Assembly: GCA_963851265.1 (NCBI GenBank) | Contig: CAWKNZ010000008.1 | Coordinates: 64,001-128,000, forward strand | Origin: an uncultured Gemmatimonadales bacterium | GTDB lineage: Bacteria; Gemmatimonadota; Gemmatimonadetes; Gemmatimonadales; Gemmatimonadaceae | Direction: 5' to 3' | Length of the DNA: 64,000 bases | Shown: one piece after another, positions 13,088 to 48,881 of the stretch | How positions within the stretch are numbered: the first letter of the stretch is position 1 | Layout: each line of letters starts with the position of its first letter | Notes under the pieces: model-generated | The model's input: only the letters and a program-made list of their open reading frames with translations | Told to the model about the DNA's origin: nothing | The model's database searches: none | Translations under genes and position numbers: made by a program

Positions 13088-16000
13088 CTAGCGGGTCACC
13101 TGCCCCACGCACCCCATCCCACCCAGCCAGCCACGTTGCAGCACCGGTGCGCCACCCGGGAAGGTGAACTCGACCGCGACCGGTCCTCCCTTGCTGCCGG
13201 TCCACTCGGCGCGCCAGGTGCTGCCCGCGCCTTCCCACTTCGCGGCCCGAGCGAGGAGGTGGAAAAGCGCCCAGTCGCCGGCGGCCTGCGCTATCGTCCG
13301 CGTGCCCTTGAAGATCAGCAGGGTGGTGTGCCCAAGGTCGAGTCGCGCCTCGCGGCCCGTGGTCGACGGCCAGACGAATTGCGCCGGCGGCGCGTCCTTG
13401 CCGAAGTGCGCGACCTGGCTCCCCTGCGTGAGCGTCAGCTCCCGGTCGCCCGCCCCGCGCGCCGTGAGCAGGACGTGGGGGGCCGGCGCACCCCCGTAGA
13501 GCGCGTCGGACGCCTGCGTCGCGCGGTTGAGGAAGGCGAGAAACGGCGCCGAGAGCGCCACGGGAGCGCCGGGCTTCTGCACGTAATGATCGCCCTGGCG
13601 CTCGACGAGTCCCTCCAGCCGCTCCTGCTCGAGCGCCCAGAGTGCGCCGGTGCCGGGGGCGAACAGTGCGTTCACCTCGGCGAGCGACGCATCGACCGGC
13701 GCGTCGGGGGTGAACGGGAACTTCGCCAACACCGGCGTCATCGCCGCGCACAGCGCCCGCCCGCGCTCGTTGAGGGTAGCGACGTCCACGCGAGCCACGG
13801 GCGGGCCGGCGTGGGCGCCCGCGCCGCCTCCGCCCCCGCCCCCGCCGCCGGCCGCCACGCGCGGCGCGGGCGGCGGCCGCGTCGCTGCAATGGGGCGCAG
13901 CACGCCCTCGGCCGCCTCGATCGGTGCGACGAGCAGGGCGGCGACGGCGGGGCCCACCGGCAACGCCGCCGTGTCTGCCGCGAACTTCTGCGCGAGCTGC
14001 CGGGCGGCCACCTTGGCCTGCGTCGCCTGCGCGAGCGCCTGCTCGCCGGCATGCATTGTCTGGAGCGCACCCGCGGTGTCGGTTGCCGGGGGCAGGTTGC
14101 CGACCTGCTCCAGCGCGCTCGCGAGGGCGAGCATTCCGGTGGCGTACGCCTGGTTCGCGTCGGACACGAGCCGGTCCGGCGTCGAGGGCGGCGTCACCGC
14201 GTGCACCGGTTGGAAGGCGGCCTTCACCCCGGAGTCGACCGCGGTGTTGCGGGCCGCGAGCGAGAGCGCGCCGAGGAGTGGCGACTGCGCACCGCCGAAC
14301 GCGACGAGGCGCTGCGCAGCGTCTCGCGCGCTCCCCCCGCGCGCCACCGCCAGCCCGCGCACGTAGGCGCGCCAGTGCGCCACGTAGTCGGCGCGGTAGC
14401 GCGCGCGGAGGTCGGACAGCACCCGGTCGCGGTCCCCGGCCTGCGTGGCCGAGGCATCGCCGACGACCCAACGCTCTCCCGCGAAGAAGCGGTCGGCGTG
14501 GCGGAAGGCGTCCTGCATGTAGGTCCATCCGCGGGCGGTGTACGCGCCGGGGACTTCGCCCGCCGCGCTCACGACCCCCGCGCCCTGCGGCGCGAAGTCC
14601 GTGAGGCGCGCCGGCGGCGTCGCCTTCGACGCCTCGGCGAGCATGTACTGGTACATGCGCTCCGGGCCGGCGAAGCGGGCGAGGAACTCGCGCGTACGGC
14701 CGACGAGCGCGGCGTCGGTCGCCGTCGGCCACGGGTTCGCCGTGGGGAGCGCGCGGGCGTAGAACTCGAACTGCTTGCGGGCGAGCGCGGCCGCGTCGGC
14801 GTCGACCGGCTGACCGCGCTCCCAGTGCGTGAGGAGCACCGGGACCAGGAACTCCGGCGTGCTCCGTTCCGGCGCCGAGGTCGTCACGAGGTACGCCCGC
14901 AGGTCGGCGTAGACGCGTCCGTAGTCGTCGTCGGGGCGCGGGATGTCGGGAAGGGCGCGCAGCGAGTCGACGAGGGCGCCCCAGGCGGTCGCGTGCAGCT
15001 GCCGGCGGTAGCCGTCCCACCACACCCGGCTCGCGGCGTCGGCGAGAGCGCCGCCCTGCCACAGCCCCCAGCGCAGCCGCCCGGGGACGCCGGCGTCCTC
15101 GTAGCCCTGAACCGTGTCGAGCACCGCCCGCAGCGCGTCGAGCCGGCGGAGCGCGTCGACCGACGGGAAAGCGAGCGTTCCGGCCGGACTCCCCGGGGGC
15201 GCCATGACGGTCGGAAGTGCTGCGACGCCGCGCGCGGCCGCGCCGGTGCTCGCGGCGAGTTCGCGGTTCCCCGCCCACGAGCGAAGGACGCCCGCTGCGA
15301 CGAACACAGCGGCGACGACGCCCGCGCCGAGCAGGCCGCGGCGGAGCCGGGCGACGCGAATGCCGCCACGCGCGGCCACCGCACTCCCCCGGTCTGCGAG
15401 GACCACGTCGGGGAAGAGTCGGTCCAGGAAGGTCCACTCGGGGACGCGGCGTGGGGCCGGGGGCGCGTAGCTCCCGACCGCGGGTGCCGCCGTGGACGCG
15501 GCGCCGCGACCGAACACCCCGGTCGCGCCAGCGGCGAACGCGGCCGCCGCGGGGGCCGAGGCCGCCGCCGCGGGGAGGGCGTCGGCCATGACGACGGGGC
15601 GCGCACCGACGAAGTAGAAGCCGCGGAGCCGCGGGCTCACGCCGAGCTGGAGGGGACGGCACACCTCGAGGAGGAACCGGCGAACGGCTGGTGCGAGCTT
15701 GCCGAGCTCGCGCGGGAACTCGTACGCTCCAAGGCGCCGACGCGGGACGCTCTCGCGCCCGAGCAGCTCCAGGCGCCGCCGAGCGAGGGCGGCGACGATT
15801 CCGTCGTAGGCGGCGGCGAGCCGCGGCCCGAGCCGCTCCGCGTACCCGCCGACGTACCCGCGGCCGCCGGGGCCCGCGGGGCCCACGTCGAACGGGAGCG
15901 CGGCGCCGAGCGGGGCGCGCACTTCGTCGCGCGTGAACGGCGCGGCCCACGCCTCGAAGTGCGCGATTCGGTCGGCGCGGGTGAACGCCACGTACACGGG

Positions 16001-16705
16001 CAGGGCGACGCCCCACAGGGCCGCCGCTTCCGCCAGGCGCTCGCGTGCGAGGTGCGCGAGTTCGTCGAGCGGCGCGTCCGCGCCGGCACCGCCGGGCGCG
16101 TACAGGAGGTCGCAACTGACGCAGAGCACGACCGCGCGCGGCGCGGCCTCGCCGCGGCCGACTGCAGCCGCGAGTCGTGGCGGGCGGAGCGCGCGCACGA
16201 ACGTGCGCCACCGCTCGGCGTCGGCGAACACGGCGCCCCCCGGTTCGACCAGCACCGCATCGTCGGCCAGCCACACGTTGACCGCGCCGGTCGGGGGCGG
16301 CGCCTCCCCCGGCCCGAGCGCGGGCGCGTCCCCGGCGAGCAGTACCGGGTCGAGATCGGCGCGCGTGACGAGCGACGTCTTGCAGCTGCCGCCCGCGCCG
16401 ACCACGAGCACCACGGGCCGGGCGTCGAACGCGCCGTGTGGAAGCCGGGCGCGCGCCGCGGCCACGAGGCGGACCGCTTCGTCGTCACCGTCCTCCGAAA
16501 TGTCAGGCTCGGGTGGAGCGGCCGGCCGCAGGTACCACAGGATTGCCCCTGCGGCCGCCAGGCCGAGGACGGCGAGGCAGACGCGGAGGACGAGGCGCTC
16601 CGTGTCGCGGAGGGTGAGCACGGCCCCGAAGCCCCAGGCCGCGAGCAGGAACAGGGCGAACGCGACGCCGGCGGCGACGAAGCGCGTCTGCGGGGAGCGG
16701 GGCAT
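13088..16705 (-). CDS. tssM: T6SS membrane complex subunit TssM/IcmF
   Basis: Two N-terminal TM helices, degenerate P-loop GAGGSCKTS, 'LPVYVAFTRAD', 'LRGFYF', third TM, ImcF region (RWGLWQG, YADLRAYL, VPGAYT, YRADY..HW), C-terminal 'GDWALFHLL'; follows tssL. Confidence 0.92.
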   Translation of the reverse strand: MPRSPQTRFVAAGVAFALFLLAAWGFGAVLTLRDTERLVLRVCLAVLGLAAAGAILWYLRPAAPPEPDISEDGDDEAVRLVAAARARLPHGAFDARPVVLVVGAGGSCKTSLVTRADLDPVLLAGDAPALGPGEAPPPTGAVNVWLADDAVLVEPGGAVFADAERWRTFVRALRPPRLAAAVGRGEAAPRAVVLCVSCDLLYAPGGAGADAPLDELAHLARERLAEAAALWGVALPVYVAFTRADRIAHFEAWAAPFTRDEVRAPLGAALPFDVGPAGPGGRGYVGGYAERLGPRLAAAYDGIVAALARRRLELLGRESVPRRRLGAYEFPRELGKLAPAVRRFLLEVCRPLQLGVSPRLRGFYFVGARPVVMADALPAAAASAPAAAAFAAGATGVFGRGAASTAAPAVGSYAPPAPRRVPEWTFLDRLFPDVVLADRGSAVAARGGIRVARLRRGLLGAGVVAAVFVAAGVLRSWAGNRELAASTGAAARGVAALPTVMAPPGSPAGTLAFPSVDALRRLDALRAVLDTVQGYEDAGVPGRLRWGLWQGGALADAASRVWWDGYRRQLHATAWGALVDSLRALPDIPRPDDDYGRVYADLRAYLVTTSAPERSTPEFLVPVLLTHWERGQPVDADAAALARKQFEFYARALPTANPWPTATDAALVGRTREFLARFAGPERMYQYMLAEASKATPPARLTDFAPQGAGVVSAAGEVPGAYTARGWTYMQDAFRHADRFFAGERWVVGDASATQAGDRDRVLSDLRARYRADYVAHWRAYVRGLAVARGGSARDAAQRLVAFGGAQSPLLGALSLAARNTAVDSGVKAAFQPVHAVTPPSTPDRLVSDANQAYATGMLALASALEQVGNLPPATDTAGALQTMHAGEQALAQATQAKVAARQLAQKFAADTAALPVGPAVAALLVAPIEAAEGVLRPIAATRPPPAPRVAAGGGGGGGGGAGAHAGPPVARVDVATLNERGRALCAAMTPVLAKFPFTPDAPVDASLAEVNALFAPGTGALWALEQERLEGLVERQGDHYVQKPGAPVALSAPFLAFLNRATQASDALYGGAPAPHVLLTARGAGDRELTLTQGSQVAHFGKDAPPAQFVWPSTTGREARLDLGHTTLLIFKGTRTIAQAAGDWALFHLLARAAKWEGAGSTWRAEWTGSKGGPVAVEFTFPGGAPVLQRGWLGGMGCVGQVTR

Positions 16706-16741
16706 GGCGGGGAAGTGGGCCGAAGGCGGCGGGCGCGCCCG

Positions 16742-17425
16742 TCAGCGTGCCTGGAGCGCGGCGGCGGACGCGACCGCGCGGACGTCGGCGGCGGCCCGGC
16801 CGAGCGAGAGCGCGGCGCCGCCCCACGCCGCCGCCGCGACGACGACCGCGGCGGCGAGCGCGACGGTGAGTCGCGGCACCCACGGATCGCGGGCGGCCAC
16901 GGCGTCGTCGGGCGGCCGCCACCCAGGAGTGAGGTCGCCGGCCGGACCGCGGAGCCGTGCGACGCGCTCACCCACGCGGGCCGCGACCGCGTGCACGGCC
17001 TCGGGGCCGTGCACGCCGTACCGCCCCCGGAATCCCAGCAGGAGGCAGAGTTGGTGCACTTCGAGGACGTCGGCCAGCGCCGCCGAGTCGGGGCGCGAGA
17101 GGAGCTGGTCGACGTGCTGGTAAAACCACTCGCCCGCCATGTGGTTGCCGAAGAGCTCCTCCTGCAGCGGGCACCGCGCCCAGTCCGCGAGCGCCGGCTG
17201 CCGCGCGTTGAGCACCGATTCGTCGAGGAGTGCGACGACCGCGAACCCGGCGAGGCGGACGTCGGCGGGGTCGTAGCCCGCGCTCCGCGCGTCCTGGTCC
17301 GCGCGGGCGAAGAGCTGCAGCATCTGCTCGCGGAACGCGGCCGCGTCCTCCACGGGCTGGCGGTTGGCGCGCAGCCGGGCGACGGCGGTGAGCGGTTCCT
17401 GGAAGGCGAGGGCGAGGGCGGACAT
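16742..17425 (-). CDS. tssL: T6SS DotU/TssL (no OmpA domain)
   Basis: 'FAVVALLDESVL...W...PLQEELFGNHMAGEWFY...LEVHQLCLLLGFRGRY'; C-terminal TM. Confidence 0.93.
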   Translation of the reverse strand: MSALALAFQEPLTAVARLRANRQPVEDAAAFREQMLQLFARADQDARSAGYDPADVRLAGFAVVALLDESVLNARQPALADWARCPLQEELFGNHMAGEWFYQHVDQLLSRPDSAALADVLEVHQLCLLLGFRGRYGVHGPEAVHAVAARVGERVARLRGPAGDLTPGWRPPDDAVAARDPWVPRLTVALAAAVVVAAAAWGGAALSLGRAAADVRAVASAAALQAR

Positions 17426-17452: not shown

Positions 17453-17480
17453 TACAGCAGCGCGGGCGCGCAGCTGTCAT
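17453..17480 (-). promoter_or_regulatory. Candidate ECF promoter ATGACA-N16-GCTGTA upstream of tssL-tssM
   Basis: Matches the bipartite motif shared by 10 T6SS-locus upstream regions; exact 16-nt spacer. Confidence 0.55.
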
Positions 17481-18904
17481 CACGATGGGAGCAACACCGC
17501 GAGTTCGAGTGCTGCCCCCGGCAGCGCGTCGGCCGGGACGTAGACGCCGATCTCGCGCGTGTCCTGGAGCCCCTTCGCGCACGGCCCCGCCAGCGCGAGC
17601 TCGAAGTACGCGAGCCCGGGTCGCGGCGCGAGCCCGGCCGGCGCGGCGGGCACGTGGTCGACCGCCATCCCGGGGTACGCGCGCCGCACGAGTTCGAGCA
17701 CGTACTTGCTCGCGCACGCCTTGATCAGCTGCGGCACCCGCGCGCTCAGTTCGGCGGCCGGCAGCGCGGCGCTCACGCCCAAGAACCAGCGTGCGCCCGC
17801 GGCGAAGCAGCGCGGGTCGGGCACCACCGCCGCATGCAGGATGTCGGACACGGCGCGGAGCGGGATGATCACGGCCGACGCGGCGACCACCACGTCGAGG
17901 TGCGCGCGAAGGTGACGCTCGAGCGCCCCGAAGCAGCCGGTGAGGTCGTCGTGCGCGTACGCCGGCAGCTCCCCCGCGGACGCGGTGAGCGAAAACGTGC
18001 AGAGCGCGCCGGCGAGCCGCACGAGCTCGAGCCAGAGGCGCTCGGGGTGGACGTGCCGGACGGCGGCGAGGTGCCGAAGGGGGGCCTCCGCCGACCGCAC
18101 CGCGTGAAGCAGCCACCGCGTCGCGAGTTCATTCCCCGCGTACGCCGACGGCTCGCCGCCGGTCGCGGGTGAGGACGCCGTGGGCAGCGTCGCGGCGAGC
18201 GCGGCGCCCTTGGCCTCCAGCATCCCAATCACCGTGCGGAGTAGCCCGACGAGCCGCGCGCTCGCGCTGTACGTGAGGCACGGCGGCACGTACTCGACGT
18301 CGACGACGAAGCGGCCCGCGCCGTCGCGTGCGACCCGGCCGACCGGGACCGACACCGCGCCCTCCGGCACCTCGCCGTCGAGCGCGAGGCGCAGCCGCTT
18401 GACGGCGAAGCGGACCGGCGCCGCGTCGCGCCCGGACGCCTCGTCCGCCACGTCGCGCGTCACCGCCTGGTACCGCGGGTCGGAAGCCCCGCCGTCGGGC
18501 GAGGTTCCGTTCGGCCCACTTCCGTGGAGCGCGCCCGACGCAGCCTCCACGTCGGCCACGTTCGCCGCGCCGGAGCGCCACGCGGGCAGGACCAGGTGCA
18601 CGACGTGCGCGTCCCGCACGGGGGAGAACCGCTCGGCCAGGGCCACGGGTGCGGGCGCGGGGTCGGCCTCGGGGACGTCGAACGGCGTGCCGTCGGGCAG
18701 GAGCCCGCGCGCGTGCGCGAGGGCGAGCGTTCCGTTCGCGAGCGCGCCCGGGTCCAGCGCCGCCGCGGTCACCCCCCACGCGAACGGGAAGACCGCCTCG
18801 AGCGTGCGCGCGACCGTCGCCTCGTGCTGGCGCCGCTGCGCCTGGAAGTGATGCGGGGCCAGGTACATGCCTTCGTACCAGGCCACGCGCGCGGGCGCGG
18901 TCAC
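17480..18904 (-). CDS. tssK: T6SS baseplate subunit TssK (paralog 1)
   Basis: VAWYEGMYLAPHHFQAQ, GLLPDGTPF, YVPPCL, HPERLW...LAGALCTFS, YAHDDL, GLAYF, GVYVP. Confidence 0.93.
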   Translation of the reverse strand: MTAPARVAWYEGMYLAPHHFQAQRRQHEATVARTLEAVFPFAWGVTAAALDPGALANGTLALAHARGLLPDGTPFDVPEADPAPAPVALAERFSPVRDAHVVHLVLPAWRSGAANVADVEAASGALHGSGPNGTSPDGGASDPRYQAVTRDVADEASGRDAAPVRFAVKRLRLALDGEVPEGAVSVPVGRVARDGAGRFVVDVEYVPPCLTYSASARLVGLLRTVIGMLEAKGAALAATLPTASSPATGGEPSAYAGNELATRWLLHAVRSAEAPLRHLAAVRHVHPERLWLELVRLAGALCTFSLTASAGELPAYAHDDLTGCFGALERHLRAHLDVVVAASAVIIPLRAVSDILHAAVVPDPRCFAAGARWFLGVSAALPAAELSARVPQLIKACASKYVLELVRRAYPGMAVDHVPAAPAGLAPRPGLAYFELALAGPCAKGLQDTREIGVYVPADALPGAALELAVLLPS

Positions 18905-18929
18905 GGCCTCGGCCCCCCTGACGCGGCGC

Positions 18930-18957
18930 GTGACCGCGCCCGCGCGGACAACCGGTA
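18930..18957 (+). promoter_or_regulatory. Candidate ECF promoter GTGACC-N16-CCGGTA upstream of ORF 19015
   Basis: Motif match with 16-nt spacer, about 57 nt before the ATG. Confidence 0.65.
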
Positions 18958-19014
18958 TTTCCGAGTGCAGCGCACGGCCTCCGCGGCCTCCCCGCCCTTT
19001 CTCGCCCCGCCCCG

Positions 19015-20445
19015 ATGTCCGACCACGCCTCGTCGTCCGACCACGACCTTGCCCGCCGCTACCGCCTGCTCGACATCGCCGCCGAGGGCGGCGGCGTGCG
19101 CAGCCGCCATGCGGAGGAGTTCACGACGGGGCGGACGGTGATGGTGCACGAGGTCGACGGGGTGAGGCCGGCGGTGGTCGAGCGGTTGGGAGAGCAGATC
19201 GGGCGACTGCTCCCGGCGGACAGGAGGCTGGTGCTCGAGACCGCGGCATTCCCCGCGGGCTTCGCCATAGTTACCGAATTTCTCCCCGACCTCGCGTCAT
19301 TCCCTGCGTGGCTCGACGCGCGGGTGCGGGGCGCGGACCGCGCGCGCTCGGCGGAGCCCGACGGTTCCCCCGTCGCGATGGAGTTCTACGTCGGCGCGCC
19401 GGCACCGGGCGGCGCGGCCGCGGCCCCCGCAGCCGCGGGGGCCGGCGAGTTCACCCGCCTCTTCGTGCTCGGCGGCAAGGTCTCGTTCGAGCCGGCCGCG
19501 GCCGGAGCGGCGGGGCCTGAGCGGGCGCGTCCCGCGTCCGACCCAGCACGGTCCGATTCGATCGACGCGGCCGTGGTGCCGGCACAGCCCCCTGCCCCGG
19601 CGCCGCCCGTCGCGTCGGTGCCGGCGCCGGTGGTACCAGTCACACCACCACTCGCCGCGGGCGAGTTCACCCGGCTGTTCAACGCGTCCACGCCGGCGCC
19701 GGCGGGCGTCGGGGCCGCGTCGCCGCTCGTGCCGGCGGGCCCGCCGTCACCCGCACCGCGGCCGCCCCGCGCCGACGTCGCCGATGGGCTGCCGGGTGCG
19801 CGACACGCCCCCGCGGCGGGACCGGACGCCCCGTTCGCGCCGCCGCCGTTGCAGCCGACGCCCGCGTCGCCGATGGTGCCGGCCCAGGCGCCGCGCCCGA
19901 CGACCCCGCATGCCGCGGCAGCACCGCCGTACGCGGGCGGCGGGGCGACCGGAGCGCTCGCGGCGCGTGCCGTTCCGCCGGAGGCGCTGGCCGACCCGCT
20001 CGCCGCGTTCGCCGCGTTCGTGGCCCCGCCGGCAGGGATCGCTCCGCCCGCCGCGGCGTGGCGCCCCGCGGAGGCGGTGGCGTCCGCGGAGGGACTCCCT
20101 CCGGCCGCGGTGGGGGGCGTCGCGCGCGGACCCGCGCCGTTCGCGCCCGCCGTCGCGCCGCCGTCGGCGAGCGCGGGCCCGAGCGATTACACCCGCCTGA
20201 TCCGGAACGCCGTCGCGCCACCCCCGCCCGCGCGCGCGCGGCCCGCGTCGCCCGACGCCGCCGTGTCGCCCGTGCGGTTCCCGCTCCGCCTGGTGGTCGC
20301 GGTCAACGTCGCCCTGCTGCTCGCGGCGGCGATCGTCCTCTACTTCGCGACCCGCCCGCCGCAGCCGGCGGGGAGCGGCGCCCCGGGTGCAGCGCCTAAC
20401 GGGGTGCCGAACGCCCCGCCGACCGTGGCCGCGCCCCGCCGGTAG
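19015..20445 (+). CDS. T6SS-associated membrane protein: degenerate kinase N-lobe + Pro/Ala-rich region with GEFTRLF repeats + C-terminal TM
   Basis: RYRLLDIAAEGG...GRTVMVH...IVTEFL..LASF..WL resembles Hanks subdomains I-V only; GEFTRLF x2 and SDYTRLI; TM LVVAVNVALLLAAAIVLYF. Confidence 0.7.
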   Translation: MSDHASSSDHDLARRYRLLDIAAEGGGVRSRHAEEFTTGRTVMVHEVDGVRPAVVERLGEQIGRLLPADRRLVLETAAFPAGFAIVTEFLPDLASFPAWLDARVRGADRARSAEPDGSPVAMEFYVGAPAPGGAAAAPAAAGAGEFTRLFVLGGKVSFEPAAAGAAGPERARPASDPARSDSIDAAVVPAQPPAPAPPVASVPAPVVPVTPPLAAGEFTRLFNASTPAPAGVGAASPLVPAGPPSPAPRPPRADVADGLPGARHAPAAGPDAPFAPPPLQPTPASPMVPAQAPRPTTPHAAAAPPYAGGGATGALAARAVPPEALADPLAAFAAFVAPPAGIAPPAAAWRPAEAVASAEGLPPAAVGGVARGPAPFAPAVAPPSASAGPSDYTRLIRNAVAPPPPARARPASPDAAVSPVRFPLRLVVAVNVALLLAAAIVLYFATRPPQPAGSGAPGAAPNGVPNAPPTVAAPRR

Positions 20446-20470
20446 CGCCGGCCGGCGAGCGGCGCGCCGA

Positions 20471-21877
20471 TCACCGCAGCGCGATCACGAGCTCCAGGCG
20501 CGCGTCCACCAGCTCGGCGGGCACGTACACCGCGAGCGTGCGCGCGCGTGCGACCGCGTCCCACGCCGGCCCGGCGCGCCGCAGCGCGAAGTACAGATAG
20601 TCGAGCTTGACCGGCACCGCCGGCGGCGGCTGCGGGACGTGCGCCAGCTCCATCCCGGGCAGCGCCTGGCGGATGAGCGTGTCGACCACGTCGGCCGAGC
20701 CCACCTTGCAGCCGGTCAGCACGCGCGGGACGAGCTCGGCCTGACGCAGCGGCGAGCGGACGGCGAGGTACCACTGCGGCGCCGCGAGCCACGCCTCCTG
20801 CTCGATCGCGACCGCCTGCACGGCGGGACGCACCGGGCGCAGCGGGAGCGAGACCGCGGTTTCGGGCACTGCCGCGTCGAGCAGTTCGAGCAGTCGCGCC
20901 TCGAGCTGGCCGAAGCACTCCCCGAGTCGGACGTGCTCGTAGGCCGGCAGCGCGGGGGGTTCGGGCGCGAAGGTCGAGAGCGCGCCCGCGAGCGCGACCA
21001 TCGCCTCCCAGAGCTCGGCCGGGTGCCCGCCGCGCACGTCGGCGAGGTGGCGCAGGCCGGGCAGGTGCGTGTTGAGCGTGTAGAGCAGCCAGAAGCTCGC
21101 CACGTCGGTGACGGAGAAGTCGGCGAGCCCCTGGTTGCGCTGCCGCCGCGCCCCGGCGAGCGACGCGCCCTTGGCCGCGACGCGCGCGGCGAGGCGCTGC
21201 GCGAGGGCGCCGAGGGCGTCGCTCGCCGTGAGCGTGAGGACCGGCGGGACGAACGCACGGTCGAGCGCGTACTCGCCGGCCTCGGAGCGGACGAGGCGCG
21301 CGACCGGGAGCGTGGTGTAGCCCTCGGCCGGCTCGCCCTCGAGCAGGAGGCGCAGGTTGGCGCGCGCGACCTGGATGGGGCGCTCGCCGAGCCCGGTGTT
21401 CTCGTCGCGGACGAGTTGCTCGTCGGCGCGCCAGCGGGCGGCGCTGGACGTGCCGTTGGCGCCGCCGGTGGCGTGCGGGCCGGCACCGGCGCCGTCACCG
21501 GAGGGAGCGACCGGCGCGCCCGCCACGTTGCGCGTCGCCGGGCGGTACTCCGGGACCGCGAGGTGGACGAGCAGGGCGCGCTGGTCCTGGCCCCACGCGG
21601 ACGCGAGCGGTCGAGGGGGTGGTAGCGGGTCGGCGCCGGGCGCGTCGAAGAGCAGCCCGTCGGGGAGCCGGCCGGCGACCGCGGTGACGACGAGCGTGCC
21701 GCCCGCGAGCGCGGCGCGGTCGACGGCGACTCGCGAGAAACCCCACGGGCAGAAGGTGAGGGCCGCGAGCTGGAAGCGCAGCACCTCGTCCAGGTAGCGG
21801 TCCTGGGCCTGGAGGTGCTGCGGGGTGAGGAGCGTGCCTTTGGTCCAGAGGACCGGGGCGAGCGCGGGCGTGGGCAT
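20471..21877 (-). CDS. tssK: T6SS baseplate subunit TssK (paralog 2)
   Basis: VLWTKGTLLTPQHLQAQDRY, GRLPDGLLF, DENTG, FVPPVL, HPAELW...LAGALSTF, DYLYF, AVYVP; start ATG 21877. Confidence 0.93.
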   Translation of the reverse strand: MPTPALAPVLWTKGTLLTPQHLQAQDRYLDEVLRFQLAALTFCPWGFSRVAVDRAALAGGTLVVTAVAGRLPDGLLFDAPGADPLPPPRPLASAWGQDQRALLVHLAVPEYRPATRNVAGAPVAPSGDGAGAGPHATGGANGTSSAARWRADEQLVRDENTGLGERPIQVARANLRLLLEGEPAEGYTTLPVARLVRSEAGEYALDRAFVPPVLTLTASDALGALAQRLAARVAAKGASLAGARRQRNQGLADFSVTDVASFWLLYTLNTHLPGLRHLADVRGGHPAELWEAMVALAGALSTFAPEPPALPAYEHVRLGECFGQLEARLLELLDAAVPETAVSLPLRPVRPAVQAVAIEQEAWLAAPQWYLAVRSPLRQAELVPRVLTGCKVGSADVVDTLIRQALPGMELAHVPQPPPAVPVKLDYLYFALRRAGPAWDAVARARTLAVYVPAELVDARLELVIALR

Positions 21878-22030: not shown

Positions 22031-22468
22031 GTGCGCAACAGAGCCAATCCGGTGCTCGTCGTGTTGGGACTTCTGGCGCTCGCCTGGGCGCTCACGATGT
22101 TGAAGCCGATGCCGCAAGGCGCCGTGCTCGTGGCCGTCGCTGCCGCGCTCGCCGTCGAACGCTGGGCGCCCCGACGGGCCCGGCCGGCCACCTTCGTGTC
22201 CGTCGCGTCGCTCGCGGCGCTCCTGGGGTACGTGATCGCCGGGTCGGAGCTGCTCGCGCACGCTCAACGCTGGCTGTTCCCGGCGCCCCGCCGCGTGATG
22301 CCGCTCTTCGCCCTCGTCGTCGGGGCGAGCATCGGCGCCGGGTTGTTCGTGTGGACGTTCATCTCGGTCATCCGGCCGCTGGCCCGGCTCGACGTCACGC
22401 GGCGCACCGGCCTGGTGGCGATCGGCGCCACCGGCGTCCTGGCCTGCGGGTTGGACGCGCTAGCCTGA
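22031..22468 (+). CDS. Small multi-pass membrane protein, unknown function
   Basis: 4-5 hydrophobic segments in 145 aa; first gene after the motif at 21949. Confidence 0.6.
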   Translation: MRNRANPVLVVLGLLALAWALTMLKPMPQGAVLVAVAAALAVERWAPRRARPATFVSVASLAALLGYVIAGSELLAHAQRWLFPAPRRVMPLFALVVGASIGAGLFVWTFISVIRPLARLDVTRRTGLVAIGATGVLACGLDALA

Positions 22469-22495
22469 CGCGCTCACAACTCACCAGGACCAACA

Positions 22496-23296
22496 ATGGC
22501 GTTCCCTCAGCCGCAGACTCCCGTCGCTCCGAGGGTCCCCGTCGCCCCGAGGACTGCGCAAGACTGGCTCGACGAGCTGGCGAACGGCCGGGAGCAAGCG
22601 TACCCCAATATCAGCCGTTCCGAGGTGGTGAGCGGGCTGCGCGACCGACTTGCGACACCGACGCTCATCGACCAGAAAAACACCAGCCTTTGTGGACCAG
22701 CCGCCCTGATGTACTGTCTCGCGTCGTCGAAGTCGGCGCTTTACGCACAGTACGTCGCGGAACTCTACGCGACCGGCCACAGCACGATCGGCCGGTTGAC
22801 GGTCGCGCCGGGCGCCGGTTGCAAGGCGTACAGGGCCACCGCGGCGAGCGGGATTCACCCCGTCGACTGGGTGACCCTCGCGAGCCTGCGCGACTCGGAG
22901 AACGATGCGTTCGACTACGACGCCCCGAGCTGCGAGGTCGGCGGCATCACGATGCCGGACGACCTCGTCGACTGGTTCAAGGACGTCGGCTTCAGCAAGG
23001 ACGCCAACGTCACCAATCTCGTCTTCACAAAGGACGAGGCCACGCTCACGGCCGCGGGCGTCCGGCGCAGCCATAGCCACCACGTCTGCCTGTTCATCAG
23101 CGCGAACATGCTGCAGAGCCCGCACGAGTCGTCGTGGACGCCCGACCACTGGGTGGTCCTCGCGTCGCCGGTGACGGTCGGAAGTGGGCGCGCGAAGTTC
23201 AGCGTCTTCACCTGGGGCGGCGTGCAGTCGGTCGACCAGCCGGTCGGCGATTTGTGCGAGAACTTCTACGGTTACGTCTCGAGTTCCGCAGCGTAG
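22496..23296 (+). CDS. Papain-fold cysteine protease/deamidase-like protein, candidate T6SS effector
   Basis: DQKNTSLCGPAA (Gln/Cys), DHWVVL (His), FSVFTWG; no signal peptide; AGGA RBS; lies within the T6SS locus. Confidence 0.7.
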   Translation: MAFPQPQTPVAPRVPVAPRTAQDWLDELANGREQAYPNISRSEVVSGLRDRLATPTLIDQKNTSLCGPAALMYCLASSKSALYAQYVAELYATGHSTIGRLTVAPGAGCKAYRATAASGIHPVDWVTLASLRDSENDAFDYDAPSCEVGGITMPDDLVDWFKDVGFSKDANVTNLVFTKDEATLTAAGVRRSHSHHVCLFISANMLQSPHESSWTPDHWVVLASPVTVGSGRAKFSVFTWGGVQSVDQPVGDLCENFYGYVSSSAA

Positions 23297-23327
23297 CGGG
23301 ATCCACCGCCGCGCGCGTCAGCGTCGC

Positions 23328-23355
23328 GTGATGGGTCGGGGCGCGACCCGCTGTA
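23328..23355 (+). promoter_or_regulatory. Candidate ECF promoter GTGATG-N16-GCTGTA upstream of the PG-binding protein gene
   Basis: Motif match with 16-nt spacer in the intergenic gap. Confidence 0.6.
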
Positions 23356-23442
23356 TACCGCCGTAGCGGGTGCGCGACTCTCGGGGCCGGACCCCACCCC
23401 GCCACAGCCACGCAGCAGGCAGGTAGAGCGGGGACCAACGGG

Positions 23443-24477
23443 ATGGGCGTGCGGACATTACGCGCCGGAAGCAGCGGCGGAGACGTGCGCGCCGTGCAGG
23501 CCGCGCTCAACCGGAACACCACGCTCGACACCGACGGCGTGTTCGGCCACGCCACCCGGGAAGCCGTGATCGCGTTCCAGACCGACCACGACCTGCAGGT
23601 GGACGGCGAGGTAGGGCCGGAAACGCGGCGGGCGCTCTTCCCGCTCGTCGGCCTGACGATCGAGGTCTTCGGGACGCGGATGGGACGCCGCGCGACCGGG
23701 GGGGCGGGGCCGACATTCGAGTTGCCCCCACTCATGCGCCCGTTGACGCTCCCCTCCCTCGTTCCGCCGCTCACGCTGCCCGCCGTGCCCGCGCCGTTCG
23801 CGCCGGGTCCGCCCGCCGGGCTCGGGCCGGTATCGCCGTTACCGCCGCTCTTGCCGCCGCTGCTGCCACCGCTGTCGCTGACCCCGCCTGCGGGGCGGCT
23901 CGTCAGTATTCCAGGACTCGCCGAGCCGATCATGCTTCCGCCGATCGCCACCACGCGGCCCTCGTCGAGCGGGCCGGACTGGCAGCAGGTCGCGCAGACG
24001 CAGCGGCAGTTCAAGAGCCTGTTCAAGGGGCCATTCATGGACAGCTTCGCCGTCGGCGTGCAGAGCGTCTTCCTGCACAAGGACACCGACAACCACGTCG
24101 AACTCACGACGGGGTGCCTGCTCCAGTCCCCGATCGGGTTCACCGACCACCAGGGTAACGATTTCACCCTCGCGTGCTTCGCGCAGGCCACGTGGGTCGA
24201 CCCGATCTTCCACTACGGGATGTTTCACCTCGCGAACCCGTACGCGCAGCTGCAGGCGCAAGGGAATGCGACAGGGCCAGCCCACCCCACGACACAGGTC
24301 GCCGGGTTCCCGGTCAACATCAACGTGGACCTGAACGACGACGGGCTACAACTCAACGCCAGCGCCGGCGCGGTCTGGTCGCTGGCGTTCGAGCACGACG
24401 GCGTGCACAGCACCTGGGGGACGGCGCTCGGGGTGGGGCTGGTCGGCAAGTTCCGCCTGCTCGACGGAGGGCGTTAG
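23443..24477 (+). CDS. Peptidoglycan-binding (PG_binding_1) protein with Pro-rich linker and beta-rich C-terminal domain
   Basis: LRAGSSGGDVRAVQAALN...DGVFGHATREAVIAFQ...LQVDGEVGPETRRAL; amphipathic beta-strands in the C-terminal ~180 aa; no signal peptide. Confidence 0.85.
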   Translation: MGVRTLRAGSSGGDVRAVQAALNRNTTLDTDGVFGHATREAVIAFQTDHDLQVDGEVGPETRRALFPLVGLTIEVFGTRMGRRATGGAGPTFELPPLMRPLTLPSLVPPLTLPAVPAPFAPGPPAGLGPVSPLPPLLPPLLPPLSLTPPAGRLVSIPGLAEPIMLPPIATTRPSSSGPDWQQVAQTQRQFKSLFKGPFMDSFAVGVQSVFLHKDTDNHVELTTGCLLQSPIGFTDHQGNDFTLACFAQATWVDPIFHYGMFHLANPYAQLQAQGNATGPAHPTTQVAGFPVNINVDLNDDGLQLNASAGAVWSLAFEHDGVHSTWGTALGVGLVGKFRLLDGGR

Positions 24478-24533
24478 ACGGCCGACCGCCCACGGCGCCG
24501 GGCGCACGTGATCGGCGGGCACGCAGTCGGCGC

Positions 24534-24561
24534 ATGACGCGCGCGCGGCCGGGATACGGTA
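24534..24561 (+). promoter_or_regulatory. Candidate ECF promoter ATGACG-N16-ACGGTA upstream of the CHAP gene
   Basis: Motif match with 16-nt spacer, about 53 nt before ATG 24615. Confidence 0.6.
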
Positions 24562-24614
24562 TAAACGCGTGCCCGTCCGACACCCGCGACCAGCCCTTAC
24601 CACGGACAAGTCTC

Positions 24615-25559
24615 ATGAGCCACTTCACCAAGCTCGGCGGGGCCGACGCGACCGGGTACGACGCCGGGCGCAGTTTACAAATACTGCCGGCCGGGCGGCG
24701 GACGACCTTCTATCTCGTCGCGGGCGCCAACCTCGAGGTCACAGTCGACGACGACTCGATCGCCGCCCTCAGCGTCGGGAATGACGACGACAAGTCAGCG
24801 CACGGGAGTGGCGCGTTGACCGGGTGGGAGCGATCGCAGGTTCTCCGCAAGGTGGTCCTCACCGCGAAGGCACCCGGCGGCGACACCACGCTGCGTGCGC
24901 TCCTCGGCGCCTCCGATTTCGCCAGGCCGGTCACGATCCGCGTGACAGCCGACCAGAATTGGAGGCAGTGCGGGAACGTGGCGGCCGAAGTCACGCCCGG
25001 GTTGCGGGGGGAATTGCGGCAGATGCCGCTGCGCGACGCCGTCCTTCGGATTGCGGAAGACCAGATGCACAGCACCATCGCGAGCGGATCCGGCTTCGGT
25101 ATCTACCACGCGAACAGCGAGTACAACTGGTGCGGGGCGTTCGTGCACTGGTGTTGGAGTCAGGCCGCCGCGATCAAGGGAGAGGCGAACCCGTTCGGCC
25201 CGAGTAGCGACGTGCTCCTCTCGCCGCAGAAGGCCATTCATTGGGCCATGCGGCCCGAGACGCCCGGCGTGTTGCTCCGTTACCAGGGCCCCGACCCGAT
25301 CACCGGGAAAGGCAGGCAGGAATATCGCGAGATCGGAGACGACGGATGCAGCCTGGAGCGGGGCGACGTCGTCCTGCTCCGCGACGGCAGCGCTACGGGA
25401 TGGAAGCACGTGTGCATGGTCAACCGCGTGGACGGAACGGCGGTCCAAACGATGGACGGCAACCAGGGCACCGGCCAGTGCATCAAGCTCGTGGACCGTA
25501 GCCTGGCCGACCTGCTGCCGGATAAGTCGCCGAAGCTGGCCTTCGTGCACGTGCCGTGA
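24615..25559 (+). CDS. CHAP/NlpC-P60-type cell-wall amidase/endopeptidase, candidate T6SS effector
   Basis: NWCGAFVHWCW (catalytic Cys), RGDVVLL, KHVCMV (His), TMDGNQ; beta-rich N-terminal domain; no signal peptide. Confidence 0.82.
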   Translation: MSHFTKLGGADATGYDAGRSLQILPAGRRTTFYLVAGANLEVTVDDDSIAALSVGNDDDKSAHGSGALTGWERSQVLRKVVLTAKAPGGDTTLRALLGASDFARPVTIRVTADQNWRQCGNVAAEVTPGLRGELRQMPLRDAVLRIAEDQMHSTIASGSGFGIYHANSEYNWCGAFVHWCWSQAAAIKGEANPFGPSSDVLLSPQKAIHWAMRPETPGVLLRYQGPDPITGKGRQEYREIGDDGCSLERGDVVLLRDGSATGWKHVCMVNRVDGTAVQTMDGNQGTGQCIKLVDRSLADLLPDKSPKLAFVHVP

Positions 25560-25574
25560 CGCGACCCGACGCCC

Positions 25575-25973
25575 ATGCGATCCGAACGCCTCTACCACGG
25601 GACTAACGGCGACAACGTCCTAGGCATCATTGCGGCGGGCCGGATGCGGCCGGACGCGGACGGCTGCATGTTTTTCGCCCGCCACGAGTGGAGCCACGTG
25701 CTGCAGCACGGTGGGGATCGCAAGCGGAAGGCCGCGTTCGCGCTCGCGCTCGACGTCGACATTCCGGCGTCTGCGCTCGTCGAATCGCGGGCGACGCCGG
25801 GCATCCCGGACACGTTCGTCGTCCGGACGCGCGCGCCGTTGGAGGTCAGGGCAGTGTGCCTGTTCGTCCGGAACCCCGGCGCGACCAGGGCGGAACAGAT
25901 CAGCGGCGCCGACGCCATCACCCGGTACCTGACCGCGCGGCATGGGCCCGTCACGCGGGACGCGGACGAGTAG
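25575..25973 (+). CDS. Small ADP-ribosyltransferase-fold protein, candidate toxin
   Basis: LYHGT...LGIIAAGRMRP...GCMFFA pattern matches the first strand/helix/second strand of H-class ART folds; 15 nt after the CHAP stop. Confidence 0.55.
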   Translation: MRSERLYHGTNGDNVLGIIAAGRMRPDADGCMFFARHEWSHVLQHGGDRKRKAAFALALDVDIPASALVESRATPGIPDTFVVRTRAPLEVRAVCLFVRNPGATRAEQISGADAITRYLTARHGPVTRDADE

Positions 25974-26068
25974 CGTGCGGTGTGTCGGCGGTCGTGTAAC
26001 CGCGGCCGTTCGGCGACGCCGGCAAGCCGTCGGTCATCGCCGCCCCATGACTTCGGAGGAGCCCGCCC

Positions 26069-26206
26069 ATGATCGCCGAAGTCCGCGCCGACGCCAGGGA
26101 CGTGCTGAAAGTCGTCCGTCCGCTCGACCAGGAGATCGCCTGCAACGGGGCGACCGCGGAGCTCTTCACCAAGCTCACCCGCATCAGGGGGGCGATCGCG
26201 GGGTGA
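26069..26206 (+). CDS. 45-aa small protein (not in the ORF track)
   Basis: GGAGGAG RBS at 26055-26061, ATG 26069, TGA 26204-26206; MIAEVRADARDVLKVVRPLDQEIACNGATAELFTKLTRIRGAIAG; GC-rich third positions. Confidence 0.5.
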   Translation: MIAEVRADARDVLKVVRPLDQEIACNGATAELFTKLTRIRGAIAG

Positions 26207-46420: not shown

Positions 46421-48881
46421 ATGCGCAGCCTCACCCCGTCCACGTTCTGCCCGTCGTGCGGCTTCACCGCGGCCGCCGACGCGCGCTTCTGCCCCAACTG
46501 CGCGACGCCCGTCGTCGTGCCCGGCGGCGACCCGCTCTTCACCCGCGTGCGGACCGCGGTCGCGCACGAGTACGAGGTGCTGCGCGAGATCGGCCGCGGC
46601 GGGATGGCCGCGGTCTTCCTCGCGCGCGAGCTGAATCCGCGGCGCATGGTCGCCCTCAAGGTGATGCTCCCCGAGCTCGCCTACTCCGAGTCGATGCCGC
46701 AGCGCTTCCTCGCCGAGGCGCAGACCGCGGCGTCGCTCGAGCATCCCAACATCGTCACGGTCTTCAGCAGCGGCGAGGCCGGTGGCGTGCGCTACTTCGC
46801 GATGCGCTACATCGACGGCGCCTCGCTCGAGCAGCTGCTCCTGGTCGGCGGGCGGCTGCCGGTGCGGCTCGCCTGCTACGTGCTCGCGGAAGTCACGCGC
46901 GCGCTCGACTTCGCCCACGCCGAGGAGGTCGTGCACCGCGACGTGAAGCCCGGCAACGTCATGCTCGACCGGCGCTGGGGCCGCGCGATCGTGACCGACT
47001 TCGGCATCGCCAAGGTCGCCGACGGCGAGAACCTCACGCGCACCGGGCTGGCGATCGGCACGCCGGCCTACATGAGCCCCGAGCTCTGCAGCGGCCTTCA
47101 GCCGACCAGCGCGTCCGACCAGTACGCGCTCGGCGTCGTCGCCTACCAGCTGCTCACGGGAGCGCCGCCTTTCGTCGGCAACGCGCTGGAGGTGCAGAAC
47201 GCGCACGTGCGCGGCGCCCCGCGGCCGCTGCGCGAGGGGTGCCCCGATTGCTCGCCCGCGCTCGAGGCGGCAATCCTGCGCATGCTCGAGAAGTCGCCCG
47301 ACGCGCGCTGGCCCCGGCTCGCCGACGCGATGCCAGCCCTGCTCGCGCACGTCGGCCCCGAAGCCGAGTGCCAGGACGAGCTGCGGGCGAGGCTCGCGCG
47401 GCTCGCCCACTCGCCGGATTTCCCCGGGCAGGACCGCCGCGAGCACGAGCGGCGGTCGGGGCAGAATGGCACCGCGCCCGCCGCGACCCCGGTCGTCCTG
47501 ACACCGACCGGGACACCGGCCGGGACGCCGGCCGCGTACCCCGTCCTGACACCAGCGGCGCTGCCAGCCGCGATGCCCGCCGCGATCCCAGCGGCACCCG
47601 CCGTCGTACCCCTCCCAATCGCGATCCCCGCGGCAGCGGCCCAGCCTGTGGCCATGCCGCCTGTCGTGATCCCGCCGTTCGTGATCCCGCCGGTCGCGAT
47701 GCCGTCGGTCATGGCGACGTCCGTGATGGAGTCGCCGGTTATGGCCCCGCCGTCCACGGCCCCCGCGGTCATCCCGCCGCCCATCACCCCGGCGCCCATC
47801 ACCCCGGCGCCCATCACCGGCGCCCATCACCCCGGCGTTCATCGAGCCAGCGCCCATTGCCCCGGCGCCTCCCGCGCCGGCCACCGCGATCACGCTGCTA
47901 CCGCGCACCCTGCAGCTCGTCGCGGGCGAGACCGCGTCGCTGTGCGCAATCGCGACGACGGCCGACGGCAGTCCGGCGCGCGACGCGACGCTCACGTGGT
48001 CGGCGAGCGACGCCGGCGTGGTCACGGTCGACGCGATGGGGACGGTCTACGCGGTCGGACCGGGCTACGCCGGCGTCTGGGTGGCGGCGGGACTGGTCAG
48101 CGCGAGCGCCAGCGTGGTCGTCGTTGCTGCCGTGCCGGCGCCGGTGCCCGCCGTGGCCGGCGCGCCGCCGGCGACCGAGCCGGCCCGCGTCGCGGAGCTC
48201 GTGGAGGCCGCGCCGTTCGACGACGTCCCGGCATACGAGCACGCCGGCCGGTCGGGCGCGGGAGGTCGCCGGGTGCGCCCCGGCGTCGCACTCGCGGTGA
48301 CCACCTTCACCGCGCTGCTCCTCGGCACGACGGTCTACCGGCTGCAGAGCCACGCGCCAGTCCCACCCACGCGTGTTGCGGTCGGCGGTGCCGCCGCCCA
48401 CCAGCCCGAGGTGGCCCTCCCCCGGGACCCGGTGCCAACGCCCAACGTCGTGTCTCCCCCGACCGTTGCCACCGGCGATTCGGTCCCCAAGGCGGACAGC
48501 ACACACGTTCGCCAGCCGAAGGTGCGGACACCGAAGGACCCGCTCGCGGCCGGGCACGTCCTCATCGAGCGGCACGTCGGCGTTCCGACGCTCCACGTGG
48601 GCGAGACCATGCCGCTCGTCGCGTGGCTGGTCGACAACACCGGCCACGTGCTCGCCGACGGGGCCGTGCGCTGGTCGTCGAGTCAGCCCTCGGCGCTCGA
48701 CGTCACTGGCGGGGTCGCGCGCGCCCGGCACGCCGTCGACGAGCCGTTGATCGTGACGGCGCGCATCGGCAACAAGCGTGGGGAGTTGCGCGTGCGTGTT
48801 GTCTCGGCCTCCGCCGACGCGACCTCGGCGTCGGCTCCTCCGCCGAGCACCCCGGCGATCCCGCCGCCGGGCGCGCCGTAG
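46421..48881 (+). pseudogene. Frameshifted membrane Ser/Thr kinase (Zn ribbon-kinase-Pro linker-Ig-like-TM-Ig-like), PpkA-like position
   Basis: CPSCG/CPNC; IGRGGMA, VALK, HRDVKPGN, DFG, YMSPE; 2-bp deletion in the third 15-bp repeat near 47818; downstream frame (includes ORF 48018-48881) encodes Big_2-like, TM and a second Big_2-like segment; sequencing error not excluded. Confidence 0.8.
47780..47837 (+). repeat. 15-bp tandem repeat CCCATCACCCCGGCG (PITPA) x4, third copy only 13 bp
   Basis: Units 47780-47794, 47795-47809, 47810-47822 (lacks CC), 47823-47837. Confidence 0.92.

Follow-up and report, generated by a model that had tools for sequence, protein, structure and literature searches.

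A gene for a predicted membrane protein with half of a kinase fold lies between the two tssK genes of a type VI secretion system (T6SS) cluster in an uncultured Gemmatimonadales bacterium. The DNA analyzed, called the window below, is a stretch of 64,000 nucleotides from this organism (contig CAWKNZ010000008.1). The gene occupies positions 19015..20445 of its plus strand, stop codon included, begins at the first start codon of its open reading frame (ORF), and encodes 476 amino acids (aa). From the N to the C terminus, this half-kinase protein consists of a kinase N-lobe, a long linker with repeated threonine motifs, and a single transmembrane (TM) helix, and full-length homologs have the same architecture. 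The combination defines an unannotated family for which neither Pfam nor NCBIfam holds a model. With a probability of roughly 0.85, the protein is membrane-bound, has a dead kinase N-lobe, and is dedicated to the T6SS as an accessory component. The best reading of its nature is a lineage-specific accessory scaffold and pseudokinase of unusual build, in which a stand-alone N-lobe is joined to an array of linear motifs.

The kinase N-lobe head

An earlier reading of the gene from its letters (the sequence-only reading) had proposed that the first ~100 aa follow the N-lobe of a Hanks kinase, and structure prediction bears this out. An AlphaFold2 model of aa 1-135, made with a 142-sequence family alignment, has a mean pLDDT (predicted local distance difference test) of 87.2 and reaches 94-98 for residues 11-110. 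From the single sequence the prediction is poor (pLDDT 50.5), yet the N-lobe order of strands and helices is already visible. The domain covers aa ~7-112 (19033..19350, +) and is built from a first helix (aa 7-15), β1 (16-25), β2 (28-35), β3 (41-48), αC (52-63), β4 (73-79), β5 (82-88), and a closing helix (96-112). When the model was compared with the PDB by Foldseek, the 50 matches listed were all protein kinases (E ~1e-3, TM-score ~0.5 for the query). VIA-align against representative structures likewise gave only kinases or pseudokinases among the 50 matches listed, which span model residues ~8-100. Its best match is titin kinase (Z 10.6, root mean square deviation 2.2 Å over 85 residues), and PknB of Mycobacterium tuberculosis scores Z 8.5.

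The short strings on which the sequence-only reading relied are all where it had placed them, the linker motifs described below among them: RYRLL at aa 15-19, AEGGG at aa 23-27, GRTVMVH at aa 39-45, IVTEFL at aa 85-90, and SF..WL at aa 95-100. In a weak profile alignment (hhalign) with orthologs of the kinase encoded at the cluster edge, RYRLL coincides with the beginning of β1, His45 with the VAIK lysine, and Thr87 with the gatekeeper residue. His45 (codon 19147..19149, +), at the position of the catalytic lysine, is the sole invariant column of the 142-sequence alignment; Y16, A33, G39, V42, L65, T87, and W99 are conserved in at least 90% of the sequences. Among the 41 orthologs taken from genomes of the phylum, H45, A33, and W99 never vary. 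Neither the Gly-rich loop nor the αC Glu is conserved among the homologs. The AEGGG string, noted in the sequence-only reading as a degenerate Gly loop, is real in the window's protein but restricted to it, the consensus of the family at the loop being VAxxGxRT. Most of the conserved residues lie on β2, β3, β5, and the closing helix, which in a kinase would line the ATP cleft.

Can the head act as a kinase? A regular-expression scan of the whole protein for HRD, DFG, and APE (H.D, D[FL]G, and [AS]PE) gave zero matches, in agreement with the sequence-only reading, and the C-lobe is absent, as the structured part stops near residue 112. Since the C-lobe and the catalytic residues are missing and an invariant His stands in for the Lys, the head cannot be a kinase. 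It is a kinase-derived N-lobe only and is catalytically dead, as had been claimed. A split kinase, with the C-lobe supplied by a separate protein of the cluster, was considered and rejected; the unannotated ORFs at 28298-29638 (-) and 39033-40313 (-) are without kinase features, and the first of them reads as Arg/Gly-rich, out-of-frame sequence.

Direct sequence searches place the protein in no known family. NCBIfam has no family for it or for three homologs, a sequence search of the PDB returned nothing better than E 0.1, and BLASTP of the N terminus against the two kinases encoded in the window gave insignificant matches. Homologs are plentiful when the head itself is used as the query. With aa 1-125, a word-indexed search recovered only the protein itself, and exhaustive HMMER searching with aa 1-135 brought the number of representatives to 142 at E<=1e-3, of which 40 reach E<=1e-10. 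In all 142, the domain is at or near the N terminus, within the first 75 residues. A Pfam scan of 102 of the 141 other representatives (the 39 shortest, mostly fragments, were omitted) returned no family above threshold except one borderline match, and no Pkinase at E<=0.01. The borderline case is a match of the homolog P0140 to the RIN4 "AvrRpt-cleavage" motif (20.7 bits, just over the cut-off of 20.3); as 1 of 102, it was taken as chance. Two other loci, in Streptomyces and in an alphaproteobacterial metagenome-assembled genome, are short partial matches that were treated as spurious.

Is the reading frame itself genuine? The G+C content of the window is 73-78%, and long open frames are consequently frequent on both strands, so that a spurious ORF arising by chance in 78% G+C DNA has to be considered. 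Along 19015-20445 (+), the G+C content at third codon positions is 0.84-0.98, the codon-position G+C content matches only the plus frame that starts at 19015, and the G+C phase changes at both ends of the gene to that of the minus-strand tssK genes. This periodicity, together with the phase switch at both borders, identifies a real gene. The confident fold model and the 141 other representatives with conserved domain, motifs, and TM helix likewise exclude a chance frame, to which we assign a negligible probability.

Threonine motifs and predicted membrane anchor

Behind the head, pLDDT drops after residue 112 and a Pro/Ala-rich linker of ~310 aa begins (aa 113-423; 19351..20283, +) that has no Pfam match and is presumably disordered. 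Proline and alanine together make up 42% of the half-kinase protein. The linker holds the motif GEFTRLF twice, at aa 144-150 around Thr147 (19444..19464, +) and at aa 216-222 around Thr219 (19660..19680, +). A third, juxtamembrane copy, SDYTRLI (aa 390-396, Thr393; 20182..20202, +), stands 31 aa before the single C-terminal TM helix (aa ~424-445; 20284..20349, +; 2.24 in a 19-aa Kyte-Doolittle window), which is followed by a Pro-rich tail of 31 aa (20350-20442, +). Two GEFTRLF copies, one SDYTRLI, and one TM helix are just what the sequence-only reading had described. Calls of the TM helix and of topology were made with the hydropathy window alone, which detects one hydrophobic stretch at the C terminus and none at the N terminus. 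To judge from the sequence, these features are compatible with a tail-anchored topology in the inner membrane, in which the N-lobe head would be cytoplasmic.

The motifs are conserved in the homologs and come in two types. The internal F-type, to which the two GEFTRLF copies belong, reads P-G-[ED]-F-T-[RQ]-[LM]-F and has 176 instances in the family; the I-type, represented by SDYTRLI, reads G-P-S-[ED]-[FY]-T-R-[IVL]-[IL], has 58 instances, and tends to be the last copy. The hydropathy window finds a C-terminal TM helix in 94 of the 142 representatives, the remainder being mostly fragments. When a relaxed motif, [GS]x[FYW]Tx[LMIVFA][FILMVY], is counted between the domain and the TM helix, 89 of these 94 hold one to seven copies, and the linkers give 303 matches against a mean of 0.85 in shuffled linkers. 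What if the central position is left free? It is then Thr in 220 of 227 cases, Ser in 5, and another residue in 2. The motif is acidic at -2 and hydrophobic at +2 and +3, and this chemistry, along with the near-exclusive use of Thr, resembles that of mycobacterial Hanks-kinase sites and of FHA ligands.

The motif array also keeps a relation to the membrane. The last motif is 24-45 aa from the TM helix in 50 of the 89 motif-bearing representatives and in 23 of 32 orthologs from the phylum, and the juxtamembrane copy, where present, is about 30-45 residues ahead of the helix. The tail past the membrane is short (a median of 10-16 aa in the family), which leaves no plausible sensory ectodomain.

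How closely does all of this resemble a Hanks kinase such as PknB or PpkA/TagE? The N-lobe topology, β1-β2-β3-αC-β4-β5-hinge, is the same, the profile alignment with the cluster's own kinases is colinear, and the layout of a cytoplasmic head, a Pro-rich juxtamembrane linker, and one TM helix is that of a receptor kinase. The half-kinase protein differs in having no C-lobe, HRD, DFG, or APE, a His in place of the Lys, a Gly loop that is not conserved, and almost no extracellular part beyond the 31-aa tail. It does not belong to Pkinase: it falls short of the profile and is without the Lys, a conserved Gly loop, and the entire C-lobe.

The family and its T6SS neighborhood

The distribution of the family was surveyed in 401 genomes sampled across the window's phylum with a profile of the domain and a profile of TssK. 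Neighbor clusters in the ESM Atlas point, as a lead, to Gemmatimonadota as this phylum. The family is present in 41 genomes, the window's included, as a single copy in each except the window's genome, which has two; TssK is present in 45. Forty of the 41 family-positive genomes have TssK, all of them with at least two TssK matches, and every sampled genome with two TssK matches carries the half-kinase gene. The genomes with a single TssK (G001, G011, G020, G085, and G370) are without the family, five of five. Put together, the family occurs in 40 of 45 TssK-positive genomes versus 1 of 356 TssK-negative ones, the latter being G116, which is 96% complete and has a family member but no TssK match.

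The linkage is also physical. The sequence-only reading had placed the gene between two tssK genes, and both neighbors indeed match PF05936. Stretches of ~19 kb around the gene from 28 other genomes were searched for counterparts of the T6SS proteins of the window; in 25 of these genomes the gene lay between two tssK genes. The local order in these 25 is tssM-tssL-tssK1-[gene]-tssK2-tssB-tssC-hcp-tssA-tssF, with the gene on the opposite strand to both tssK genes, as in the window. In G283 the gene adjoins one tssK, and the second is 30 kb off. For the remaining 12 genomes, which are on short contigs, the coordinates of the TssK and domain matches are no more than a few hundred bases apart. In all, a tssK gene adjoins the half-kinase gene in 38 of 40 other genomes. 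Metagenomes give the same picture: a degenerate DNA pattern for TGRxVMVH picked out 79 loci, of which 14 are true family members, and tssK is adjacent in the same arrangement in 13 of the 14 contigs. The domain has diverged to ~30-35% identity while this synteny has been kept.

In a maximum-likelihood tree of the domain, the sequences largely group by the sampled taxonomic families, which is consistent with inheritance together with the cluster; 16 of 38 inner branches are unresolved. Three copies outside T6SS clusters are separate from one another in the tree and nested among T6SS-linked sequences. The two copies of the window's genome are sisters (support 98/95), with branch lengths of 0.91 for the T6SS copy and 0.43 for the other. 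The ancestral state thus looks T6SS-linked, with occasional escape or duplication.

Of these three copies, the paralog in the window's genome, on contig C7 (G000 C7:276707-277075; L002 916-2046, -; L054 9123-10253, -), has 317 aa from its likely start, a C-terminal TM helix, and a single motif of degenerate form (GGFTRLY). It is next to cyanophycin synthetase-like genes, and neither T6SS genes nor a kinase gene occurs within ~10 kb. G244 (L039 G244:C3, L068 G244:C151) has its two tssK genes side by side and its half-kinase gene on another contig, where the latter has several motif copies, three strict and others looser, and is divergent from an operon for an RCC1/Big_2 protein, two CsgG-like lipoproteins, and a Hanks kinase. 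The G116 copy (L055, G116:C8) has only the degenerate motifs PGVYTRLL and PGAFTMVF and no T6SS genes nearby; a 1130-aa Hanks kinase and an FHA-GAF-adenylate/guanylate cyclase are encoded at most ~9 kb from it. One ortholog may be disrupted: that of G257 (L005/L033) is Arg-rich and out-of-frame-looking after about residue 290 and has no TM helix, and the gene of the close relative G092 is intact, so that a frameshift or a pseudogene may be involved.

Might the gene be a hitchhiker, a general signaling or envelope protein without a role in secretion? The copies outside T6SS clusters (the C7 paralog and those of G244 and of G116, with no TssK match) would fit this idea. They nest within T6SS-linked sequences, however, and look secondary, and a passenger would hardly be expected to keep its place and orientation next to tssK in so many genomes and metagenome contigs despite such divergence, or to be so nearly confined to TssK-positive genomes. 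We give this explanation only a slim chance. In this phylum, the family is found almost without exception in one type of T6SS cluster, that with two tssK paralogs, and the gene is, by the operational definition, a T6SS-associated (Tag) accessory gene.

In the window, the divergent neighbor is tssK1 (17480..18904, -; PF05936 E 2.6e-118; TIGR03353) and the convergent neighbor is tssK2 (20471..21877, -; PF05936 E 2.8e-132; TIGR03353 E 1.6e-114). Both encode full-length TssK proteins; in relatives the two paralogs are about 33-35% identical to each other. Downstream of tssK1 come tssL/dotU (16742-17425, -; Pfam match to DotU) and tssM (13088-16741, -; Pfam matches to IcmF-related families). The remainder of the cluster, which occupies 13088-46063, includes tssB, tssC, hcp, impE/tagJ, tssA, tssF, tssG, clpV, vgrG, and a DUF6931 gene, and a zinc-ribbon Ser/Thr kinase gene at 46421 comes after its vgrG/DUF6931 end.

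How is the half-kinase gene transcribed? It shares a divergent intergenic region of 18905..19014 with tssK1. The sequence-only reading saw a regulon motif upstream, and this did not hold. The region does contain an AT-rich box, AACCGGTATTTCCG, at 18950-18963, but a search of the window for this box with up to three mismatches gave 3 matches, a number equaled in 16 of 100 shuffles. The string CCGGTAWT has 2 matches, upstream of the half-kinase gene and of tssK2, equaled in 15 of 100 shuffles, and a scan of 18700-20700 for a σ70 consensus promoter or a terminator found nothing. The 160 nt before the start codons of the orthologs (L032-L067) were also compared by eye. Most of them have, at a distance similar to that of the box in the window, a σ70-like element, (A/T)TTGCG followed after ~17-19 nt by TAnAnT (for example, TATACT, TAGACT, or TATAAT), 60-110 nt before the start; the window's gene has a weaker AT-rich box, GGTATTTCC, instead of the full element. 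The element of the orthologs fits a half-kinase gene with its own promoter, divergent from tssK1.

Other features of the cluster deserve mention. A match to TssE (gp25, PF04965) at 35045-35347 falls in the same open frame as TssF (34918-37320, +), whose Pfam match covers aa 190-797 of the ORF; the two genes look fused, or at least are without an intervening stop. The tblastn matches in relatives start at about residue 1-8 of the ORF, which suggests that they may share the arrangement. Between tssK2 and tssB lies an island (22031-29400) without a counterpart in the relatives examined, in which tssB is within ~300 bp of tssK2. Its cargo comprises a 145-aa membrane protein, an unannotated 266-aa protein, a PG_binding_1 protein (23332-24477), a weakly CHAP-like ORF (24174-25559), and a weakly GH19-like ORF (26258-27388), which look like cell-wall-targeting effector and immunity genes. 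Between tssG and clpV are a gene for a papain-like peptidase (38435-38917, -; Peptidase_C70/AvrRpt2-like E 4.7e-10, also C39-like) and, after it, one for a Cys-rich protein with no family match (39033-40079, -). This pair is an insertion, as tssG adjoins clpV directly in eight relatives examined. Just outside the cluster, a second Hanks kinase (48904-50838, -) is encoded directly downstream of an extracytoplasmic function sigma factor (Sigma70_ECF, 50885-51538, -), and the two look like a pair that might regulate transcription of the cluster. Farther on, two paralogous Sortilin/BNR-repeat proteins of 1142 aa (54219-57647, -, and 58946-62374, -) are encoded on either side of an amidohydrolase gene.

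Possible roles of the half-kinase protein

What could a dead N-lobe on a membrane anchor do for a secretion system? Threonine phosphorylation is known in T6SS: in Agrobacterium, PpkA phosphorylates the tail-anchored TssL and Fha binds phosphothreonine (PMC3953482). In Pseudomonas, PpkA phosphorylates Fha, and a phospho-Thr interaction triggers assembly (PMC3953482, PMC13584744); the Fha of Vibrio is a scaffold that joins the membrane complex and the baseplate and forms condensates (PMC13389060). By analogy, the half-kinase protein could be a phospho-scaffold of the Fha/TagH kind under the control of STK1, the Ser/Thr kinase of the cluster. Along similar lines, the sequence-only reading had suggested that the motifs may be phosphosites of the cluster kinase or docking sites for TssK or TssM and that the protein may stand in for Fha/TagH. 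The kinase-derived head would dock a partner, most plausibly STK1 or else a baseplate subunit, and docking to STK1 would use N-lobe contacts, as in kinase dimerization. STK1 would phosphorylate the motif threonines, and the membrane-tethered array of motifs, phosphorylated or not, would recruit or concentrate TssK1/TssK2 and TssL/TssM at the site of assembly. Taken as a whole, this mechanism is tentative, and we put its chances somewhat below even.

The kinase that the sequence-only reading had seen at 46421, STK1 (46421..47920, +), is a Pkinase protein (E 2.9e-42) with an N-terminal zinc ribbon (Zn_Ribbon_1) and a Hanks domain at aa 51-297. Its catalytic residues are intact, Lys, HRD, and DFG being invariant in 17 orthologs, and it is a candidate partner of the half-kinase protein or a candidate kinase for its motifs. 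An STK1-like gene borders the T6SS cluster on one side in 22 of 28 genomes, adjoining tssM in 17 and past vgrG/DUF6931 in the other 5, the window's included. The window's genome has 23 Pkinase genes per 4.6 Mb, and a kinase would be expected by chance in a ~45-kb stretch about once in five. The end of the STK1 gene is peculiar. Its ORF (46421-48907, +) is sensible for about 500 aa and then becomes Arg/Gly-rich and out-of-frame-looking, and a Big_2 domain is found in another plus frame over 47727-48881; this is either a frameshift, real or of the assembly, in a single zinc ribbon-kinase-linker-Big_2 gene or two genes.

The head could also serve to regulate STK1 and not the secretion machine. 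The orphan N-lobe would then pair with the N-lobe of STK1 as an allosteric activator or a decoy, and the Thr motifs would be pseudosubstrates or substrate sinks that tune its output toward other targets. PknB-type kinases are activated by N-lobe-mediated dimerization, the head is precisely a kinase N-lobe, an STK1-type kinase is a frequent resident of the cluster edge, and two of the three copies outside T6SS clusters, those of G244 and G116, are within 10 kb of a Hanks kinase. The fixed site of the gene, however, is between the tssK genes and not next to the kinase, the examined DNA of 4 of 28 clusters has no kinase, and the C7 paralog is without one within about 10 kb. A pure kinase regulator is thus distinctly improbable.

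Need phosphorylation be involved at all? In an adaptor that works without it, the motifs would be docking sites and the N-lobe a protein-binding module; the TssK pair would be tethered to TssL/TssM in a system with no detectable TssJ, and the kinase would have no direct part. Several observations speak for such an adaptor. (i) Its tightest and most conserved neighbors are tssK1 and tssK2, and the position of the kinase varies. (ii) The family co-occurs with two-tssK clusters and is missing from single-tssK genomes. (iii) TssJ (PF12790) has no match at E<=0.1 in the 94%-complete genome. (iv) The juxtamembrane motif keeps a set spacing from the membrane, which would suit a partner with a membrane anchor of its own. 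(v) The cluster has no FHA domain or phosphatase. Set against these, simple hydrophobic docking has no need of a near-exclusive Thr, motif-bearing copies persist away from T6SS genes (in G244 and, in degenerate form, in G116, with no TssK), and a kinase-derived head near a conserved cluster kinase would be a coincidence. We consider such an adaptor doubtful but well worth keeping in view.

To return to the reading of a T6SS accessory protein with a kinase-derived head, and to the STK1-controlled phospho-scaffold built on it, a number of findings weigh against one or the other. (i) Homology to kinases is weak at the sequence level: against Pfam, the protein matches zero families at E<=1, Pkinase (PF00069) included, and the colinear hhalign match to 17 orthologs of the cluster kinase has a probability of only 18.6% (E 1.3e-3). 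(ii) The sampled genomes are relatives, and the synteny is therefore largely one inherited arrangement. (iii) The STK1-like match is partial or weak in 2 of 28 genomes, and none was seen in 4. (iv) No PP2C phosphatase (PF13672) is encoded in the cluster; the two matches in the genome are on contig C2. (v) No reader of phosphothreonine can be pinned down. The cluster has no FHA domain (PF00498), as the sequence-only reading had claimed of Fha, and the 4.6-Mb genome has two matches, on contigs C5 and C2, namely, an FHA-GAF-cyclase and a 263-aa FHA protein beside an RCC1-repeat kinase. The FHA-GAF-cyclase was rejected as a dedicated motif reader, since its distribution does not follow the half-kinase family: it is found in 240 of 401 genomes, a tally that takes in the unpublished genomes G157, G182, and G057, and as a query it has no match in several family-positive genomes (such as G287, G350, and most family-f7 genomes). 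(vi) The G116 copy and the C7 paralog, both away from T6SS clusters, have kept degenerate motifs, so the reader of the motifs need not be a T6SS core protein.

A bolder version of the scaffold can be formulated, in which the protein is a module of posttranslational control new to contractile secretion machines. Here, the orphan N-lobe would act in trans on STK1, the Thr array would be a phospho-switchable, multivalent tether that nucleates the docking of a two-TssK baseplate, the module would replace the Fha/PppA branch and perhaps TssJ, and the His45 site would be a new pocket for a peptide or ligand. That so much should hold at once is unlikely.

Which known proteins come closest? Like Fha/TagH, the half-kinase protein is encoded in a T6SS cluster and has a small N-terminal domain of a signaling type followed by a long, Pro-rich, Thr-containing region of low complexity, and the role proposed for it, that of a kinase-controlled scaffold between the membrane complex and the baseplate, is the role of Fha (PMC3953482, PMC13389060, PMC13584744). 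Unlike Fha, it has a kinase N-lobe for a head, a membrane anchor, and a repeated, sharply defined motif. There is no sign of homology between the two, PF00498 being absent from the protein in the Pfam search, and without an FHA domain it is not an Fha. TssL (DotU) shares with it a cytoplasmic N-terminal part, a C-terminal TM anchor, and the gene neighborhood, and the TssL of Agrobacterium is a Thr-phosphorylated membrane target of PpkA (PMC3953482). Its fold is unrelated, however, with no motif array and no long linker, and the cluster has its own TssL, as described above.

Two membrane pseudokinases of bacteria are also comparable. Mycobacterial MviN, of the MurJ family, is a membrane protein with a dead kinase domain that is phosphorylated by PknB and then recruits an FHA protein, and it is a bacterial precedent for a pseudokinase phospho-scaffold; it differs in that a full, bilobal pseudokinase is fused to a polytopic transporter and that it operates outside secretion systems. 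In YukC, the pseudokinase domain is complete and bilobal, and there is a sizeable extracellular domain as well. The EssB/YukC proteins of the type VIIb secretion system resemble the half-kinase protein in that they cross the membrane once, have a catalytically dead domain of kinase fold on the cytoplasmic side, and serve as an assembly hub of a secretion machine (bioRxiv 10.1101/2020.05.09.085852). The half-kinase protein has an N-lobe only, a long, presumably disordered linker, and a 31-aa tail, and it belongs to another secretion system in another phylum. It has no Pfam match of any kind, EssB/YukC included, and with half the fold and no ectodomain it is not of this type.

The family appears to be new to the literature. 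The motif strings GEFTRMF, GEFTRLF, GEFTQMF, and GEFTQLF occur nowhere in the literature searched (subscription journals and supplements lie outside it), and no T6SS protein with an N-lobe or pseudokinase is described among the titles and abstracts listed by a search for one. A 2026 review of T6SS accessory factors does not use the terms "pseudokinase," "disordered," or "Gemmatimon" in the accessible part of its main text.

Accessory (Tag) proteins set the time and place of T6SS assembly, and those known are almost wholly proteobacterial. The half-kinase family is apparently a fixed T6SS part in a soil phylum that has received little study; its clusters include a kinase and lack Fha, a phosphatase, and any detectable TssJ. 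It is a concrete candidate for the wiring of kinase control without an FHA protein and a candidate partner for the unexplained duplication of TssK. It also offers a rare case of a stable, conserved kinase N-lobe without a C-lobe, coupled to a sharply defined linear motif, PGEFT[RQ][LM]F, that is readily mutated and usable as bait.

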